Sequence record: KY963424
DNA length: 64,000 nucleotides
Reading direction: 5' to 3' (one strand)
Origin: Shigella phage SSP1
Part shown: piece after piece, positions 38,850-43,689 of the stretch
Layout: each line of letters begins with the position of its first letter
How positions within the stretch are numbered: the first letter of the stretch is position 1
Program-made: the position numbers and the translations under genes
Notes under the pieces: generated by a model
The model's input: the letters and a program-made list of their open reading frames with translations, nothing else
Told to the model about the DNA's origin: nothing
Database searches by the model: none

Positions 38850-40369
38850 ATATCGCTGGCCTGTTCACCTGTTGAATTTTCAGCTTTGTCTTTCTTAGCA
38901 CGTTTAGGTTGAGCCGGCTTATCCTTCTCAATAGGGATAACGAACTCAGCTTCCATTTGAGATATATCTTCCATTGCTAGGTTGGTAGTGTTATCCATTC
39001 GCAGAGTTTCCCAGTTCATTTTAGGCATAAACTTCACGCTATCAGAAGAACGAGTCTTAACGAAGTCAAACATAATAGCACCTTGACCATTATCAGCTTT
39101 TGCAGCATTAAGATTAGCAGCCATGTCTGCGGAATCAAGAATCCCCTTTGACATACGTGTTCTACCATCTTGATCGATCTGGTAAGGAGCTACACCAGCC
39201 ACGTTATGTTTCTGGCAGATAGATTTGAAAGACGAGCTGACAACCATCTGTTCTTTCCAGTCATACATATCAATGGTTTTAGAGTCTGGAAGTCGGGTTT
39301 GGTTAATATAGTCCAGTAAAGCTACTGTAACTTTATCACCATATCTAGCAACTAATTTATTTAGTTCTACGTCAACTGTTGTAATGGACAGTTCAGGATC
39401 ATAAACAATAATCATAGGAGTATGTAGCTCATACCCTTCTATTAGTTTACTCTCCATATCGTAGAAATCACTCATCTTAGCCATTGTGTACTGTTTAACG
39501 AAGCTATCGAAAAGCTCTTCACCACCATTAAACATTCTAGCTCTAGTTCTGGCTAATCTCAACAGAGCTGCACCTTCTAGAGTATTATTACGCATTGCTA
39601 GTGCTGATACACCTGCTAACATGGCTAAATTACGCCTAAATACTTCATGTTCTTTCATCTCAATTGAGAAGTATGGAGCAATATCCCCATTCAAATATTG
39701 CTGAACCTGTATGTTTGAACAGATAATGGATTTACCAGTACCACGCCAACCACCAAGCAGTAACGTTTCTGTGCGAGCTAAACCAATTTGAGCGTCGAAC
39801 TCATTACAAATACCAAGAGCGATTAAGTTCAGTTTGGTATCTTCTTCTCTCTGGAAAATACGCATGTTATCTGCGTTGAATACTTTTCCAGTATTCGTTA
39901 CTTTCTCTTCTAATTTTAAGTGAAGGGAGGCAACTCGGTTGAGAATTTCTCCCTGATCCAGCATTGTTAAATCTTGAAGCACGTCTGTTTCTAGAAGCTT
40001 CAGGAATAAATCCTGTGTATATTCGGCTTCTAGGACTTCAAGTGCCTGTTCCATGCTCACTTCTGGAATTTGAGTGTTAGCTAAGACGACTAGAGCTTGA
40101 GAAAGGCGGGCGTTCCTATTAGCTTCAAGCATAAGTGCGTCAATGGACGGCATTGTGTTATATTTTTTATAATAATTCTGGACGGCTTGGTAAATTGAGG
40201 AGAAAGCGTCATTAAAATGATCTTTATGCAGTTTTGAGAATGTTTCCAATGCTATTTGCTTCTGTTCGGAAGCTAGAAGCATCTTCAACACTACAGCTTG
40301 CACGTTAAACAAGGTCATTCTCCTTTGCACGCTTTCGTGCCTTCTAAATGCAAAAAGGGGAAGGAGCAT
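38846..40369 (-). CDS. Replicative DNA helicase (DnaB-like)
   Basis: Walker A GGWRGTGKS, H1a FSIEM, Walker B VALLDYINQ, H4-like APYQIDQDGR. Start ambiguous: ATG 40367-40369 (inside a hairpin loop, preceded by GGGGAGG) or ATG 40316-40318. Confidence 0.7.
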   Translation of the reverse strand: MLLPLFAFRRHESVQRRMTLFNVQAVVLKMLLASEQKQIALETFSKLHKDHFNDAFSSIYQAVQNYYKKYNTMPSIDALMLEANRNARLSQALVVLANTQIPEVSMEQALEVLEAEYTQDLFLKLLETDVLQDLTMLDQGEILNRVASLHLKLEEKVTNTGKVFNADNMRIFQREEDTKLNLIALGICNEFDAQIGLARTETLLLGGWRGTGKSIICSNIQVQQYLNGDIAPYFSIEMKEHEVFRRNLAMLAGVSALAMRNNTLEGAALLRLARTRARMFNGGEELFDSFVKQYTMAKMSDFYDMESKLIEGYELHTPMIIVYDPELSITTVDVELNKLVARYGDKVTVALLDYINQTRLPDSKTIDMYDWKEQMVVSSSFKSICQKHNVAGVAPYQIDQDGRTRMSKGILDSADMAANLNAAKADNGQGAIMFDFVKTRSSDSVKFMPKMNWETLRMDNTTNLAMEDISQMEAEFVIPIEKDKPAQPKRAKKDKAENSTGEQASDI

Positions 40370-40383
40370 AGCCCCCTCCCCTT
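40346..40383 (-). terminator. Hairpin/terminator after the 4xHTH protein gene, overlapping the helicase translation start
   Basis: - strand: 12-bp stem (AAGGGGAGGGGG / CTCCTTCCCCTT, two G-U pairs) with loop CTATG containing an ATG, followed by TTTTGCATTT. Confidence 0.5.
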
Positions 40384-40400: not shown

Positions 40401-41168
40401 TTATTCAGCAGCCGCAGCTTTTGCATCCAGTTTAGCACGCTTAGCGGCACCATCATAGTCCTTAGCAACCAGACCACGACGAGACAGCATAGATTTAACA
40501 CCACGCTCAGACTTACCAGTTTTCTCAGCGATCTCAGCAACAGTCATGTTAACCAGATCCAGACCTTCTAACAGATCTTCACGAGTTTTAGCACTTGAAG
40601 TTTCCTGTACCGGCATAGCAGCGATACGACCTTCACGAAGCAGGCTCAGAGCTTTACCACGGATCTGCTTAATATTGCGGCCGAAGTGAGCAGCGATAGC
40701 TTCAATAGTAGCACCAGCAACAACCTGATTAACAAAATCAGTTTCTTCATCCGGAGTGAAGGAACGAACAGCAGCAGCTTTTTCAGTTGGCTTAACAGAA
40801 GCGGTCATTTCCAGGCTCAGAATCTTACCCTGTACCTGCTTAGCACCGAACTGACCACCAGCTACAGCAGCAGCGATTTCAGCATAGGTATACTGACCAG
40901 CATGAGCGTTCAGGAAATCAACCAGTTCAGCTTCCTGCTCAGGAGTCCACGGGGATTTCTGTACTTCGTTAGCTTTCTGTACTTCAAAACCTTCTTTACG
41001 CAGTTTAGAGCCAACAGAGCGAGCAGTAACGTCTTTGCCAGTTTCAGCAGCCAGTTCAGTAGCGATAGCAGCTACTTGTTCTTGAGAGATTACAGCAACA
41101 CCCAGAGCAGTGGCTTTTGCTTTCAGAGACTCGGTTACACCTTCTACGTTCCAGTTCAGTTTAGACAT
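40401..41168 (-). CDS. DNA-binding protein with four tandem HTH-like repeats (T5 D5-like position, putative)
   Basis: 255 aa; four repeats resembling sigma70 region-4-type HTH (e.g. TIEAIAAHFGRNIKQIRGKALSLLREG; MTVAEIAEKTGKSERGVKSMLSRRGL); host-optimised codon usage. Confidence 0.45.
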   Translation of the reverse strand: MSKLNWNVEGVTESLKAKATALGVAVISQEQVAAIATELAAETGKDVTARSVGSKLRKEGFEVQKANEVQKSPWTPEQEAELVDFLNAHAGQYTYAEIAAAVAGGQFGAKQVQGKILSLEMTASVKPTEKAAAVRSFTPDEETDFVNQVVAGATIEAIAAHFGRNIKQIRGKALSLLREGRIAAMPVQETSSAKTREDLLEGLDLVNMTVAEIAEKTGKSERGVKSMLSRRGLVAKDYDGAAKRAKLDAKAAAAE

Positions 41169-41940
41169 TATTATTTTTCTCCAATAGTTCTTTAATCGAC
41201 AGGATTTCTATCCCATTCGTTTCGGCTTTCTTATAAGATGAGGAAGAACGTTTTGATTCATCCTCACAGATTAGGTATTTGACGTCTTTAGTAACGGATT
41301 TCTTAACCGTATACCCTAGACTTTCTAAATAGTTTGTTGCATCCGTTCTATTTGCAAAATCTTGCAAAGATCCGGTAATACATACCGCGATTCCGTTTGG
41401 CTGGGCAACTAATTCATCTGTAATTATGATATTAGCTTTTGCACCTCTGATACCAGTTGAGAATTTCCACGGTAGTTCGATAACATCCTTGCCTTGTGGG
41501 GAATTTAGCCAGGCTCTATAGTTTTCTCCAGCCTTGCCGTCAGCCTTCACATCGTGGAAGCTAGTGCAATTTTGGGATAATTTCTTTGCTGCAACCTCTC
41601 CAATTAGAGGGATTCCTAAAGAACCGAGAACTGAATCAAAGTCAATGTCTCCGCGAACTTTAGTATTTAATTCGCTAATTAACTTAGCGGCAACCTTGCT
41701 ACCCACGGCTCTAACCAAATCTTCTTCGGTTAGGTAAAACAGTTCTGAAATCTTCGTCAGCTCCAGCTTCTCAATAGTTTTTGGGCCAAAGCCCTTTAAC
41801 TTCATTTTTGTACAGAAGTTCTCAATTAACTTACTTGATTGCGCTGGACAGTTGGACTTATTCCGACAGAATAATTGTCCGTTGACAAGATCTAGCTTAG
41901 AACCACAAGAGGGACATTGTGTTGGAATTTCGATTTTCAT
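41161..41940 (-). CDS. lig: NAD-dependent DNA ligase, C-terminal part (Zn finger, HhH, BRCT) - separate ORF
   Basis: About 259 aa from ATG 41938-41940 (AAGGAAG SD); C4 zinc finger CPSCGSKLDLVNGQLFCRNKSNCPAQ, HhH region, BRCT-like C-terminus. Confidence 0.75.
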   Translation of the reverse strand: MKIEIPTQCPSCGSKLDLVNGQLFCRNKSNCPAQSSKLIENFCTKMKLKGFGPKTIEKLELTKISELFYLTEEDLVRAVGSKVAAKLISELNTKVRGDIDFDSVLGSLGIPLIGEVAAKKLSQNCTSFHDVKADGKAGENYRAWLNSPQGKDVIELPWKFSTGIRGAKANIIITDELVAQPNGIAVCITGSLQDFANRTDATNYLESLGYTVKKSVTKDVKYLICEDESKRSSSSYKKAETNGIEILSIKELLEKNNNV

Positions 41941-41970
41941 CAAATTTCTTCCTTATCAATTTATATAAAT

Positions 41971-41999
41971 ATTATAGCAAGTATTTAAGCATTTAGCAA
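41971..41999 (-). promoter_or_regulatory. sigma70 early promoter inside the gap between the two ligase ORFs
   Basis: - strand: TTGCTA - 17 bp - TATAAT with AT-rich upstream. Confidence 0.6.
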
Positions 42000-42142
42000 C
42001 TACAATTTTAACTAACTTTGCTTACCCTCGCCATAACTTTCTATCCCTCAACTGAATGATAATAGTATATACCTAAGCGGCGAAAATGTCAATAACCACT
42101 TTATAATTCCGATATGGTAGATGGGTAGCAAAGGGTTATGTA

Positions 42143-43114
42143 TTAATCGTATACTCGCTCTACTATGCACGGGATTACACCACCAGCACGAATTACTCGA
42201 ATCTGGCAACCGATCTCTAGATCAAGAGAGTTAATATAATCAACGTTATTAAGAGTCGCTTTAACAATTGTAGCATCATCAATAATTACCGGTTCGAAAT
42301 AACCAACTGGAGTTACTTTACCAGAAGCCCCTACCTGCCACTCAACTTTAGTAAGAGTTGTAATCTCGCCTTCTTCATCCTCTTTAATAGCGAATGCTCC
42401 ACGAGGGAATTTATTAGTCCAGCCTTCTCGGAAGAATTTGTTGTTGTCATTAATACGAACAACTTTACCGTCCGTCGGAATCCATTTAAAGAAGGAACGC
42501 ACATTAACAACTGTTAAGAAATCTTCATTCTCTAGCCAGAGCATATCTTTTAAATATGATTCTGTAATACCTACAGATTCAGCAGAACACTGGATACCAT
42601 ATGCAACGAAGATTAAACCACCTTCCCCGATACGTTGTACGAAATCATCGCTATCTTTGAGGTTAATAGCGCCAGAGGCAAAGTTACGTTTATTTTCTAC
42701 TTCTTTTGTAATTAGAACTTCACCAGTGATTTGAGTAGGTACTTTTTGGGAAATCTTTTGAGGGATATTTAGCAATCTTACGTTGCTTGTGACATCATTC
42801 CCTAGAATACCATTACCACGAGTTAGTGCTTGAACAAAATCTCCATTAATATATAACAGAGAAATCGCACAACCATCTAACTTATCAGTTTCTACCTGAC
42901 CTAATGGATTAAATGGAGGTTTATCTCCACGATTATAATAAACTTTCTGTAAAGAATACATACGATACAGATGTGGAATATCACCTTTAGGCCCGATCTC
43001 TTCTTCTAACGGAAATCTTTTAATCAGACGATCATATTCTTCGTCAGAGATTAAAGACATTCCCTGGTAATATGCTTCTTGACAACGTTTAATAAAGTCT
43101 TTTACATTAGTCAT
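42143..43114 (-). CDS. lig: NAD-dependent DNA ligase, N-terminal part (adenylation + OB domains) - separate ORF
   Basis: 323 aa; adenylation KxDG motif (KLDGCAISLLY) and following nucleotidyltransferase/OB-fold region typical of LigA; ends at a stop codon 199 bp upstream of the C-terminal ORF. Confidence 0.75.
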   Translation of the reverse strand: MTNVKDFIKRCQEAYYQGMSLISDEEYDRLIKRFPLEEEIGPKGDIPHLYRMYSLQKVYYNRGDKPPFNPLGQVETDKLDGCAISLLYINGDFVQALTRGNGILGNDVTSNVRLLNIPQKISQKVPTQITGEVLITKEVENKRNFASGAINLKDSDDFVQRIGEGGLIFVAYGIQCSAESVGITESYLKDMLWLENEDFLTVVNVRSFFKWIPTDGKVVRINDNNKFFREGWTNKFPRGAFAIKEDEEGEITTLTKVEWQVGASGKVTPVGYFEPVIIDDATIVKATLNNVDYINSLDLEIGCQIRVIRAGGVIPCIVERVYD

Positions 43115-43295
43115 TCATTTCTACCTGTAGTTCTTTATTATACTGAGTAGTGAGATCGGCTAACTCTTGCGCTTCTTTCAACCACGCATCTTTGTACGCT
43201 TTATCGTTGATTCCACCAAAGTTATCTAGATAGTTATTTCTAGCAGTTGATACTAGGTTTAACTTTGCTTGAATTTTTGGAAGTGTTATGTTCAT
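43107..43295 (-). CDS. Hypothetical small protein
   Basis: About 62 aa from ATG 43293-43295 (GAGAGGA SD); overlaps ligase start by 8 nt. Confidence 0.35.
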   Translation of the reverse strand: MNITLPKIQAKLNLVSTARNNYLDNFGGINDKAYKDAWLKEAQELADLTTQYNKELQVEMND

Positions 43296-43324
43296 AATTG
43301 ATCCTCTCATCAATTTATATAAAT

Positions 43325-43353
43325 ATTATATAACAAAACTGAGTTGAAAGCAA
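43325..43353 (-). promoter_or_regulatory. sigma70 early promoter
   Basis: - strand: TTGCTT - 17 bp - TATAAT; ATTTGCTTTCA -35 context; followed by GAGAGGA SD. Confidence 0.65.
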
Positions 43354-43360
43354 ATACATT

Positions 43361-43397
43361 TATAAAGAAAAAGCCAAGAACTAGGCATTCTTGGCTT
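43361..43397 (-). terminator. Rho-independent terminator after PC4-like gene
   Basis: - strand: 10-bp stem AAGCCAAGAA/TTCTTGGCTT, 7-nt loop, followed by TTTCTTTATA. Confidence 0.6.
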
Positions 43398-43689
43398 TTA
43401 GTTCTTCAGCTCGTTTCTGTACTTCATGTAAAACCTCAGATTCGCTAAGAATCTGTGTAAACGCATAGAAAAGCTGTGATGTTGTTTCTAGGGTGTAAGG
43501 AAAAGAGAAGCCAGATTTCGTTGGAAACCATTCATCATTAATATCAAGAAGCCAGTAACGAATACCCATGTATAGATTCCCACGAAATTCAGATACTGTT
43601 AATCTTACTTGTTCTCCCTCCTTCTCCCAAAGTATGATGGACTGGTCATCAACGTGTCCTTCATAGTTTTGATTTACCTGTTCGCTCAT
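43381..43689 (-). CDS. PC4-like ssDNA-binding protein (putative)
   Basis: 102 aa; pattern IILWEKEGEQVRLTVSEFRGNLYMGIRYW matches the PC4/YdbC-type fold signature; a PC4-like protein is known in T5. Confidence 0.5.
   Translation of the reverse strand: MSEQVNQNYEGHVDDQSIILWEKEGEQVRLTVSEFRGNLYMGIRYWLLDINDEWFPTKSGFSFPYTLETTSQLFYAFTQILSESEVLHEVQKRAEELKAKNA

Follow-up and report, generated by a model that had tools for sequence, protein, structure and literature searches.

A two-gene NAD+-dependent DNA ligase in the T5-like Shigella phage SSP1, probably a natural heterodimer whose genes are separated by a promoter-bearing spacer

Results

Genes and features of the ligase locus

In this work we analysed a stretch of 64,000 nucleotides of Shigella phage SSP1 (sequence record KY963424), referred to as the window. 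The source phage is T5-like (family Demerecviridae), sharing 99% DNA identity with Salmonella phage HMD-P4 and matching 470 T5-like records. Its ligase locus comprises two genes, ligA and ligB, together with a spacer that carries promoters and a downstream gene for a D5-like transcription factor (Table 1). An earlier note on this DNA had proposed that the adenylation/OB and Zn-finger/HhH/BRCT halves of the enzyme are encoded by separate open reading frames, and this assignment was borne out in strand, coordinates and Pfam domain content.

The ligA product consists of a short Ia (NMN-binding) domain, a nucleotidyltransferase domain and an OB fold, in that order, with matches to Pfam DNA_ligase_aden (E 4e-23, 82.7 bits against a cutoff of 27) and DNA_ligase_OB (residues 252-321, E 3.6e-22, 78.5 bits against a cutoff of 32.9). 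Motif I (KxDG) reads KLDG at residues 78-81 and aligns with motif I of bacterial LigA. While about 20 aa shorter than bacterial Ia, the Ia domain retains the NMN-binding signature at residues 15-30, YYQGMSLISDEEYDRL (YY..G..LISDEEYD.L), which aligns with that of 671-aa bacterial-type ligases; the Ia signature YY...SDxEYDxL specifies NAD+ rather than ATP. The protein ends ...GGVIPCIVERVYD and matches chain A of PDB entry 9HU3 with an E value of 1e-102. The start of ligA is overlapped by the 68-aa ORF, which T5 lacks and in whose place relatives carry other small ORFs.

The ligB product combines a Cys4 zinc finger, an HhH region and a C-terminal BRCT domain. The four zinc-finger cysteines are invariant among 20 homologs and align with the zinc cysteines of the E. 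coli enzyme, and the BRCT domain is recognised by Pfam (E 5.9e-8, 33.3 bits against a cutoff of 21.3). The Pfam HHH_2 match is weak, its 24.5 bits lying under the curated cutoff of 27, but this region can be aligned to E. coli LigA as far as residue 528. LigB matches chain B of 9HU3 with an E value of 1e-79, and the same chain is the top PDB match (9hu3_B) of its AlphaFold model (pLDDT 82.8). An in-frame TTG at position 41943 precedes the ligB ATG by 3 nt; the ATG is the start kept in relatives and corresponds to the first residue of the solved ortholog. The Shine-Dalgarno sequence that the earlier note had placed ahead of the second ORF is present and is kept in relatives as AGGAAG or AGGAA. 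At its other end, the ligB stop is overlapped by the start of the D5-like gene (ATGTCTAA), which in relatives is annotated as D5 or as a putative transcription factor. Given this overlap, the D5-like gene is probably co-transcribed with ligB, and it may also be translationally coupled to it.

Table 1. Coordinates of genes and sequence elements at the ligase locus, in positions of the window.
Feature	Coordinates	Strand	Basis or remark
D5-like transcription factor gene	40401..41168	minus	Sigma70_r4_2 and HTH matches
ligB, DNA-binding subunit, 259 aa	41940..41161	minus	ORF and Pfam
LigB Cys4 zinc finger (C9, C12, C25, C31)	41916..41848	minus	
Shine-Dalgarno AAGGAAG, 7 nt before ligB ATG	41948..41954	minus	read from sequence
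Module of 22 nt, TATAATATTTATATAAATTGAT (-10 hexamer and start of transcribed leader)	41955..41976	minus	
Promoter 2, TTGCTA-17-TATAAT, TG extended -10, = T5 P-K28a	41999..41971	minus	
Promoter 1, TTGACA-17-TATACT, = T5 P-K28b	42092..42064	minus	11/12 consensus positions
Non-coding ligA-ligB spacer, 202 nt (ligA stop to ligB ATG)	41941..42142	minus	
ligA, catalytic subunit, 323 aa	43114..42143	minus	ORF and Pfam
LigA motif I Lys78 codon	42883..42881	minus	
ORF of 68 aa (phrog_8267, unknown function)	43107..43313	minus	between upstream promoter-leader module copy and ligA
Second exact copy of the 22-nt -10/leader module	43309..43330	minus	heads unit containing ligA

The spacer and its promoters

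The gap between the two genes had been given as 199 bp, a length that applies only if the TTG is taken as the ligB start; measured to the conserved ATG it is 202 nt. The spacer is 100% identical to that of T5. Each of its three frames contains seven stop codons, and ligB lies in the +1 frame relative to ligA. As RNA, the spacer is no more stably folded than its shuffled counterparts (z = -0.78), and Rfam searches returned no intron or other RNA family, either in the ligase region at E values up to 10 or in the whole window at gathering thresholds; these results agree with the earlier judgement that the gap is unsuited to a group I intron. No terminator-like site was found in the ligA-ligB gap, and a tRNA scan found no tRNA genes in the window.

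The single promoter recognised in the earlier note, TTGCTA-17-TATAAT, does lie in the gap, but it is the second of two, and the one that was missed, TTGACA-17-TATACT, is the better match to consensus. Taken alone, consensus promoter matches occur at chance level (9 found against 9.0 expected). The positions of promoters 1 and 2 nevertheless fall within the features 'promoter P-K 28b' and 'promoter P-K 28a', respectively, of record AY692264. Although identity to Sugarlandvirus in coding DNA is only 68%, the two promoter cores are conserved there at 90-100%, and for promoter 1 the core plus about 25 nt downstream at 95%. Because both are annotated in the identical gap of T5 and have cores conserved in Sugarlandvirus, we take them to be real sigma-70 promoters. 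They head a unit running from ligB into the D5-like gene and not ligB alone. A TTGC-17-TATAAT promoter homologous to promoter 2 precedes ligB in 9/9 genera examined.

The names P-K28b and P-K28a follow the annotation of T5 in GenBank and are attributed to Gentz & Bujard 1985; a literature search on K28a gave nothing but K28A point mutants of no relevance here. The presence of a promoter directly upstream of ligB is itself a family-wide feature. An 8-codon spacer ORF behind promoter 1, MARVSKVS, was considered as a leader peptide and rejected, its start codon not being conserved in Sugarlandvirus. The 22-nt -10/leader module is found twice in the window against 0 expected matches, and in T5 it directly precedes ligA, with a 'putative promoter' annotated at the equivalent position.

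Conservation of the split and its fused relatives

When concatenated, the two halves are colinear with E. coli LigA (2OWO/4GLX, residues 301-528) and with Thermus filiformis LigA, and the alignment continues uninterrupted across the junction. The break falls in the linker between the OB fold and the zinc finger, 8 residues ahead of the first zinc cysteine, and follows a recognisable pattern in which LigA ends about 4-7 aa after GG(V/I)IPxI and LigB begins MxIxIPxxCPxCGS, the two being encoded by adjacent genes on the same strand. The LigA C-terminus and LigB N-terminus occupy one alignment position in Tequintavirus, Epseptimavirus, Sugarlandvirus, Novosibvirus and Priunavirus, and this position recurs in Thalassavirus, Pogseptimavirus, an unclassified Vibrio phage and Serratia phage Kamaji; in each of the nine Demerecviridae genera examined the break is at the same residue.

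All Demerecviridae records match the ligase in two pieces, and the split is seen in >1000 independent phage records; ligases of phages from other families give a single uninterrupted match, at no more than 29% identity. Proteins of 305-340 aa that end 0-8 residues from the LigA C-terminus form about 55 clusters at 50% identity, and the best 120 LigB homologs are free-standing without exception (120/120), with lengths of 190-263 aa that for nearly all lie within 247-263. Neither gene occurs without the other, they are always neighbours, and their rates of evolution are similar; dN/dS values of 0.04-0.15 for both halves (calculated against T5 and phage 2-3) indicate strong purifying selection.

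The closest fused relatives are compact single-chain ligases of 555-586 aa from metagenomes (P0154, P0165, P0174, P0175, P0181-P0183 and P0189), which share 38-46% identity with LigA and have the same compact domain sizes and total length, but in which the linker from OB fold to zinc finger is continuous, e.g. ...IIPKIINVLSSGTGRIIAPTECPSC. Using P0165 as query, no such fused form was found in GenBank phages, the best matches being the split Demerecviridae genes at 40-42% identity. In a rough neighbour-joining tree of LigA-type domains, with internal branches too short for a firm reading, fused and split forms interleave.

The spacing of the two genes varies among relatives, the gap ranging from 192 to 1359 nt and including unrelated protein genes. 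The junction is an insertion hot spot in these genomes, in which a NADAR gene, a DprA-like gene and two different genes for GIY-YIG-type endonucleases were found; proteins of the latter type are the GIY-YIG protein of SP3 and the T5orf172 protein of Kpn24-P3.

Discussion

A split ligase of this kind is already known, having long been annotated in T5, and the structure of a heterodimeric ortholog with nicked DNA is now available. In T5 the 'ligase subunit A/B' annotation of ligA and ligB is years old; gene order and lengths (323 + 259 aa) are the same as here, the proteins are 98% and 96% identical, and the shared spacer includes the annotated P-K28b and P-K28a. T5 differs in having no 68-aa ORF between the upstream promoter and ligA, and in the annotation of its ligB start at the TTG. 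The solved ortholog is that of PDB entry 9HU3, 'PR1 phage heterodimeric DNA ligase in complex with 21-mer nicked DNA containing phage nick sequence' (released 2026-01-14; 9HU3 and 9I5I both date from January 2026), whose chain B is 100% identical to 'DNA ligase subunit B' of Providencia phage vB_PreS_PR1. As here, two genes encode a chain A of Ia, nucleotidyltransferase and OB domains and a chain B of zinc finger, HhH and BRCT; the break is also the same, chain A ending ...IVEKVED and chain B starting MKIQIPTHCP, and a promoter precedes ligB in a 192-nt spacer. The PR1 proteins are however only about 56% identical in amino acids to those of the window, and the PR1 spacer is of a different sequence, with a terminator annotated after ligA, for which the gap in the window shows no equivalent. 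The bacterial enzymes (E. coli 2OWO; Thermus filiformis 1DGS) share with the phage ligase its domain order, the KxDG motif I, the Ia signature, the Cys4 zinc finger and the BRCT domain, and differ in being single polypeptides of 667-671 aa, as against two polypeptides totalling 582 aa in the phage, where the Ia-nucleotidyltransferase region and the linker are shortened; identity is about 25-38%.

Together, these comparisons suggest that the NAD+-dependent DNA ligase of this phage is a natural heterodimer made from two genes, and that the spacer between them is a transcription-unit boundary and not an intron, a reading to which we assign a probability of about 0.93. Its central element, a two-polypeptide ligase as annotated in T5-like phages, had been anticipated in the earlier note, and has gained support from the T5 subunits, the family-wide break, purifying selection and the PR1 structure. 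According to this model, LigA (Ia, nucleotidyltransferase and OB) would carry the chemistry, with Lys78 of KLDG adenylylated by NAD+ and the AMP then passed to the 5' phosphate at a nick, as expected from knowledge of the family. LigB would contribute the half of the clamp that binds DNA, a part covalently attached to the OB domain in single-chain LigA, and by analogy with the PR1 ortholog the two subunits are predicted to assemble non-covalently on nicked DNA. NAD+-dependent nick sealing is predicted from the conserved motifs and from the PR1 structure, in which the ortholog sits on a nicked DNA. At the level of transcription, the two early promoters would start a unit of ligB and the overlapping D5-like gene, which probably continues into the replication genes that follow in relatives. 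The gap yielded no terminator, so that transcripts from upstream probably read through into ligB and add to those from its own promoters. Judging from the replication genes nearby and from published work on T5-like phages, the enzyme is likely to seal Okazaki fragments and other nicks while the phage DNA is replicated.

Several other explanations of the interrupted ligase were weighed. Introns and the gene 60 bypass of T4-type phages offer a precedent for regarding the two ORFs as exons joined by group I or group II splicing, translational bypassing or frameshifting, and the +1 frame of ligB would fit such a scheme; we nevertheless consider it highly improbable, in view of the Rfam and folding results, the stop codons in every frame across the 202 nt, the possession by ligB of its own Shine-Dalgarno sequence, ATG and promoters, the variable gap of relatives with its unrelated genes, and the two chains of the solved ortholog, whose termini lie exactly at the ORF boundaries. 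Post-translational joining of the halves by a split intein (protein trans-splicing) fares no better, its only argument being that split inteins are known from replication proteins. The summed length of the halves equals that of the single-chain relatives, with none of the extra ~100 + 35 aa, the termini align directly to the end of the OB fold and the start of the zinc finger of E. coli LigA, and the ortholog in the PDB consists of two separate chains; Pfam gave no intein match, and the earlier note had likewise remarked on the absence of intein hallmarks. An interrupted gene is also the commonest signature of a decaying pseudogene or of a sequencing or assembly error in this genome, but the same interruption in so many independent phage records and in about 55 distant metagenomic clusters, the constraint on both halves and the conserved functional elements within the spacer leave this the least credible explanation of all.

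A further alternative, which we regard as unlikely though less remote than these, is that LigA and LigB also or mainly act independently, for example with LigB, made from its own strong promoters and possibly in excess, serving as a free nick- or DNA-binding BRCT protein and LigA recruited only at times. The location of the genes in different transcription units and the pair of strong promoters in front of ligB would be consistent with such a division of labour, as would the distance of up to 1.36 kb between the genes in some relatives and the phage-specific nick sequence named in the PDB title. Against it stand the invariable co-occurrence and adjacency of the genes, their similar rates of evolution and the crystallisation of the ortholog as a heterodimer on a nick.

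For this genome, the value of our analysis lies in a clean annotation of two genes, two mapped promoters and no intron, while the comparative results are modestly useful in demonstrating that the break point and the promoter before ligB are conserved across the family. In addition, the fused and split forms make a natural pair in which to study the tolerance of the LigA clamp for losing its covalent link from OB fold to zinc finger.

With respect to the origin of the split, the nearest parallels are the 'genes in pieces' of T4-like phages, in which an essential enzyme of DNA metabolism is likewise encoded by two adjacent genes and assembled non-covalently. Examples include nrdA of Aeromonas phage Aeh1, split by the homing endonuclease gene mobE, and the T4 topoisomerase genes 39/60. 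Unlike these, the ligase split is fixed family-wide, and most genomes, including this one, are without an endonuclease gene. We tentatively entertain the possibility, with more doubt than confidence, that the junction is an ancient and still active landing site for mobile DNA, where insertion of a free-standing homing endonuclease or promoter cassette into the linker split a compact single-chain ligase; the endonuclease would later have been lost, leaving the promoter spacer, and the sporadic GIY-YIG-type genes of present genomes would represent re-invasions that target the conserved ligA end. As a speculative extension, separate promoters could have led to an excess of LigB with a role of its own at the site-specific nicks of the phage. 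The repeated capture of homing-endonuclease and accessory genes makes the junction a possible system for studying how 'genes in pieces' arise in phages, and a few relatives do have a free-standing gene for a GIY-YIG-type endonuclease exactly at the split, accompanied by a synonymously recoded 3' flank of ligA.

Two genes encode the domains of a single ligase

The NAD-dependent DNA ligase of this phage is divided between two minus-strand genes, ligA and ligB, that are separately initiated and jointly hold every LigA domain. LigA carries the adenylation domain (Pfam E 4e-23) and the ligase OB-fold domain (E 3.6e-22), with the motif I lysine at residue 78, in KLDG, and an N-terminal YY..G..LISDEEYD.L, which in alignments with bacterial LigA falls on the NMN-binding Ia domain. 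LigB opens with a Cys4 zinc finger (C9, C12, C25 and C31) that is invariant across 20 diverse homologs, and contains a weak HhH match and a BRCT domain (E 5.9e-8). Both the ORFs and their Pfam domains confirm the two separate ligase ORFs that the earlier note had placed at these coordinates. Ratios of dN/dS for the two halves (0.04 and 0.15 against T5; 0.06 and 0.05 against phage 2-3) show strong purifying selection on both.

Features of the ligase region in the window and of the cargo found between ligA and ligB in homologous loci (locus-internal coordinates)
Feature	Coordinates	Strand	Detail
68-aa ORF (phrog_8267)	43107-43313	minus	overlaps ligA start
ligA	43114..42143	minus	323 aa
Promoter TTGACA-17-TATACT	42092..42064	minus	consensus scan; stronger match
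Promoter TTGCTA-17-TATAAT	41999..41971	minus	consensus scan
ligB	41940..41161	minus	259 aa
D5-like gene, putative transcription factor	40401..41168	minus	start overlapped by ligB stop
TATAATATTTATATAAATTGAT, copy before ligB	41955-41976	minus	exact repeat
TATAATATTTATATAAATTGAT, copy before the 68-aa ORF preceding ligA	43309-43330	minus	exact repeat
Terminator-like hairpin	43369-43399	minus	13 base pairs, then T run
Terminator-like hairpin	40355-40383	minus	13 base pairs, then T run
Equivalent position of the SP3 and Kpn24-P3 insertions	about 42120-42150
Salmonella phage SP3 insertion	L002 1749-2390		GIY-YIG ORF, 213 aa
Klebsiella phage vB_Kpn24-P3 insertion	L011 1259-1957		232-aa ORF
Proteus phage Stubb cargo	L007 1792-2409		NADAR-domain gene
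Vibrio phage River4 cargo	L008 1769-2972		DprA-like gene, two small ORFs
Further cargo, distant Demerecviridae	L009 1753-2287
Further cargo, distant Demerecviridae	L010 1757-2217
Further cargo, distant Demerecviridae	L012 1370-1984

By analogy with LigA enzymology, which Shuman and colleagues and the 2OWO structure are said to have established, Lys78 of LigA would be adenylylated by NAD+ with the aid of domain Ia, the HhH and zinc finger of LigB would join the NTase and OB domains in encircling the nick, and the BRCT domain would be accessory. The enzyme would be expected to seal Okazaki fragments and nicks as the phage replicates, a role that fits the place of its genes among replication genes: a helicase gene follows the D5-like gene in the window (DnaB-type according to annotation in relatives), and DNA helicase, primase and polymerase genes lie downstream of the D5-like gene in relatives. 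Genome papers on T5-like phages make statements consistent with such a role (PMC4319617; PMC3632103).

The break is conserved and falls within a linker

Concatenated LigA and LigB align with E. coli LigA (2OWO/4GLX, residues 301-528) in one uninterrupted HMMER stretch over the junction, and likewise with Thermus filiformis LigA (1DGS/1V9P). The sequence ...IVERVYD of LigA matches the end of the OB domain, and MKIEIPTQCPSCGS of LigB aligns with ...EVVFPTHCPVCGS of the E. coli enzyme. Because the halves align without interruption with single-chain LigA, the break lies in the short OB-to-zinc-finger linker, 8 residues before the first zinc cysteine, with no domain missing. The combined length of 582 aa matches that of compact metagenomic single-chain relatives (555-586 aa), in which this linker is continuous at the break position.

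The window belongs to a T5-like phage (99% identity over 2.4 kb to Salmonella phage HMD-P4, with 470 T5-like records matching), and tblastn with the concatenated halves gave matches in 1170 phage records. Among the matches listed, all Demerecviridae records match in two or more pieces, and ligases of unrelated phages, with genomes mostly of 130-310 kb, match in one piece at identities of at most 29%. Homologous loci were fetched from T5, Epseptimavirus, Sugarlandvirus, Novosibvirus (Proteus phage Stubb), Priunavirus (Providencia phage PR1), Thalassavirus and Pogseptimavirus (Vibrio), an unclassified Vibrio phage and Serratia phage Kamaji. At every one of these loci LigA has its C-terminus 4-7 residues past GG(V/I)IPxI and LigB starts with MxIxIPxxCPxCGS. 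Of 5.8 billion database proteins, the 120 best homologs of LigB are without exception free-standing, with lengths of 190-263 aa (247-263 in nearly every case). Among 1.84 billion cluster representatives, searched exhaustively with HMMER, about 55 clusters of 305-340 aa end 0-8 residues from the LigA C-terminus. The nearest fused relatives, 38-46% identical to LigA, are the metagenomic proteins P0154, P0165, P0174, P0175, P0181-P0183 and P0189. No counterpart of the fused compact form was found among sequenced phages, and fused and split forms are interleaved in a rough NJ tree whose branching is not settled.

Assembly from two polypeptides

The best PDB matches were the two chains of 9HU3 and 9I5I, 'DNA ligase (NAD(+))' (339 aa, E 1e-102) and 'DNA ligase subunit B' (248 aa, E 1e-79). 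LigB was also modelled with AlphaFold (pLDDT 82.8), and searching for similar folds led to an entry titled 'PR1 phage heterodimeric DNA ligase in complex with 21-mer nicked DNA containing phage nick sequence', with a release date of 2026-01-14. Its chain B and the 'DNA ligase subunit B' of Providencia phage vB_PreS_PR1 (Demerecviridae) show 100% identity. The PR1 proteins are approximately 56% identical to those of the window, and chain A ends and chain B starts at the same alignment positions. As judged from the entry title and sequences, the PR1 chains have thus been shown elsewhere to form a complex on nicked DNA. The T5 annotation, the conserved break and this two-chain structure bear out the proposal that the enzyme is made from two polypeptides, as in T5-like phages; the observation behind that proposal was real and its interpretation right. 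The split itself is already known, having been annotated in T5 for years, and an ortholog has now been solved structurally.

Splicing, bypassing or frameshifting could in principle join the halves, but every frame of the spacer contains seven stops (ligB lies in frame +1 relative to ligA), the gap RNA folds no better than shuffled sequences (z = -0.78), no Rfam family, introns included, was found over the ligase region, and the PR1 ortholog consists of two chains, which together exclude such joining. Joining of LigA and LigB by a split intein is likewise excluded by the direct alignment to single-chain LigA over the junction, and because 582 aa is the length of compact single-chain relatives there is no room for intein sequence; the absence of both intron and intein proposed previously is thereby upheld. 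A pseudogene or a sequencing artefact is excluded by the strong purifying selection on both halves, and conservation of the split among relatives also stands against it. The only alternative to retain some life, though an improbable one, is that LigB might also act on its own, given that ligB has strong promoters of its own. A ligase formed jointly by LigA and LigB is the reading we adopt.

Promoters and transcription unit

The spacer spans 202 nt from the ligA stop to the ligB ATG; the 199 nt reported previously counts from an in-frame TTG at 41943 (minus strand). The single promoter described there, TTGCTA-17-TATAAT, was recovered, but a second, stronger match had been missed. The consensus scan alone proves nothing, since such matches in this AT-rich DNA are no commoner than in shuffled sequence (9 seen versus 9.0 expected). 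Support for both promoters comes instead from comparison with T5, Sugarlandvirus and other genera. T5 has a 100% identical spacer, and its GenBank record (AY692264) marks precisely these matches as 'promoter P-K 28b' (TTGACA-17-TATACT) and 'promoter P-K 28a' (TTGCTA-17-TATAAT). Ligase coding DNA of Klebsiella Sugarlandvirus is only 68% identical to the window, compared with 90-100% for the promoter cores and the 20-25 nt past each -10 element, and in 9 of 9 genera inspected ligB is closely preceded by a TTGC-17-TATAAT promoter carrying a TG extended -10 element together with an A/T-rich leader. The P-K 28a/b names reportedly belong to the strong T5 promoters that Gentz and Bujard isolated functionally in 1985.

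The D5-like gene begins before ligB has ended, so the spacer promoters head a unit of at least these two genes. No terminator-like hairpin was found within the gap, and the two strong hairpins flank the block made up of the small ORF, ligA, ligB and the D5-like gene. The first promoter is followed by an 8-codon ORF, which was discounted for lack of conservation. Two exact copies of the 22-nt -10/leader module TATAATATTTATATAAATTGAT are present in the window (0 expected by chance), and T5 carries the module directly 5' of ligA; it may represent matched expression signals for both halves or a recombination module. The 68-aa ORF, of unassigned function, is a presence/absence polymorphism: T5 lacks it, and phiLLS and phage 2-3 have a 90-aa ORF or 90- and 66-aa ORFs in its place. 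Across the whole window (1-64000), neither tRNA genes nor Rfam families at gathering threshold were found.

The junction is an insertion hot spot

Cargo has repeatedly entered the junction, in all cases between the ligA stop and the conserved ligB promoter. The GIY-YIG ORF of SP3 (Pfam E 1.1e-5), carried by only 3 records, begins 8 nt ahead of the ligA stop, and the unrelated Kpn24-P3 ORF, which combines a treble-clef zinc finger with T5orf172 (GIY-YIG superfamily), overlaps the ligA stop by 8 nt. The latter is confined to one record; its paralogs at other sites of T5-like genomes carry homing-endonuclease annotations. Both phages show synonymous recoding at the 3' end of ligA, with the protein almost unchanged: identity falls to 70-77% over the last ~200 nt in SP3 (95-98% upstream) and to 75% over the last 60 nt in Kpn24-P3 (versus 95-100%), a pattern that free-standing homing endonucleases usually leave behind. 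Other cargo includes the NADAR-domain gene of Stubb (E 1.6e-31), the DprA-like gene of River4 (phrog_768, E 2.2e-49) and, in distant Demerecviridae, a crAss001_48-like ORF and several small ORFs without assigned function. The position of a NADAR (NAD/ADP-ribose-related) gene beside an NAD-dependent ligase could be meaningful or a coincidence. Together with the fused relatives, this homing-endonuclease traffic offers modest leads on how the split arose.

Annotation errors were noted in public records, including MG387042.1 (L002) and NC_047822.1 (L003): several GenBank records label the D5-like gene 'portal vertex protein', and ligB appears in others as an 'NDP-dependent' ligase or a 'tail completion protein'.
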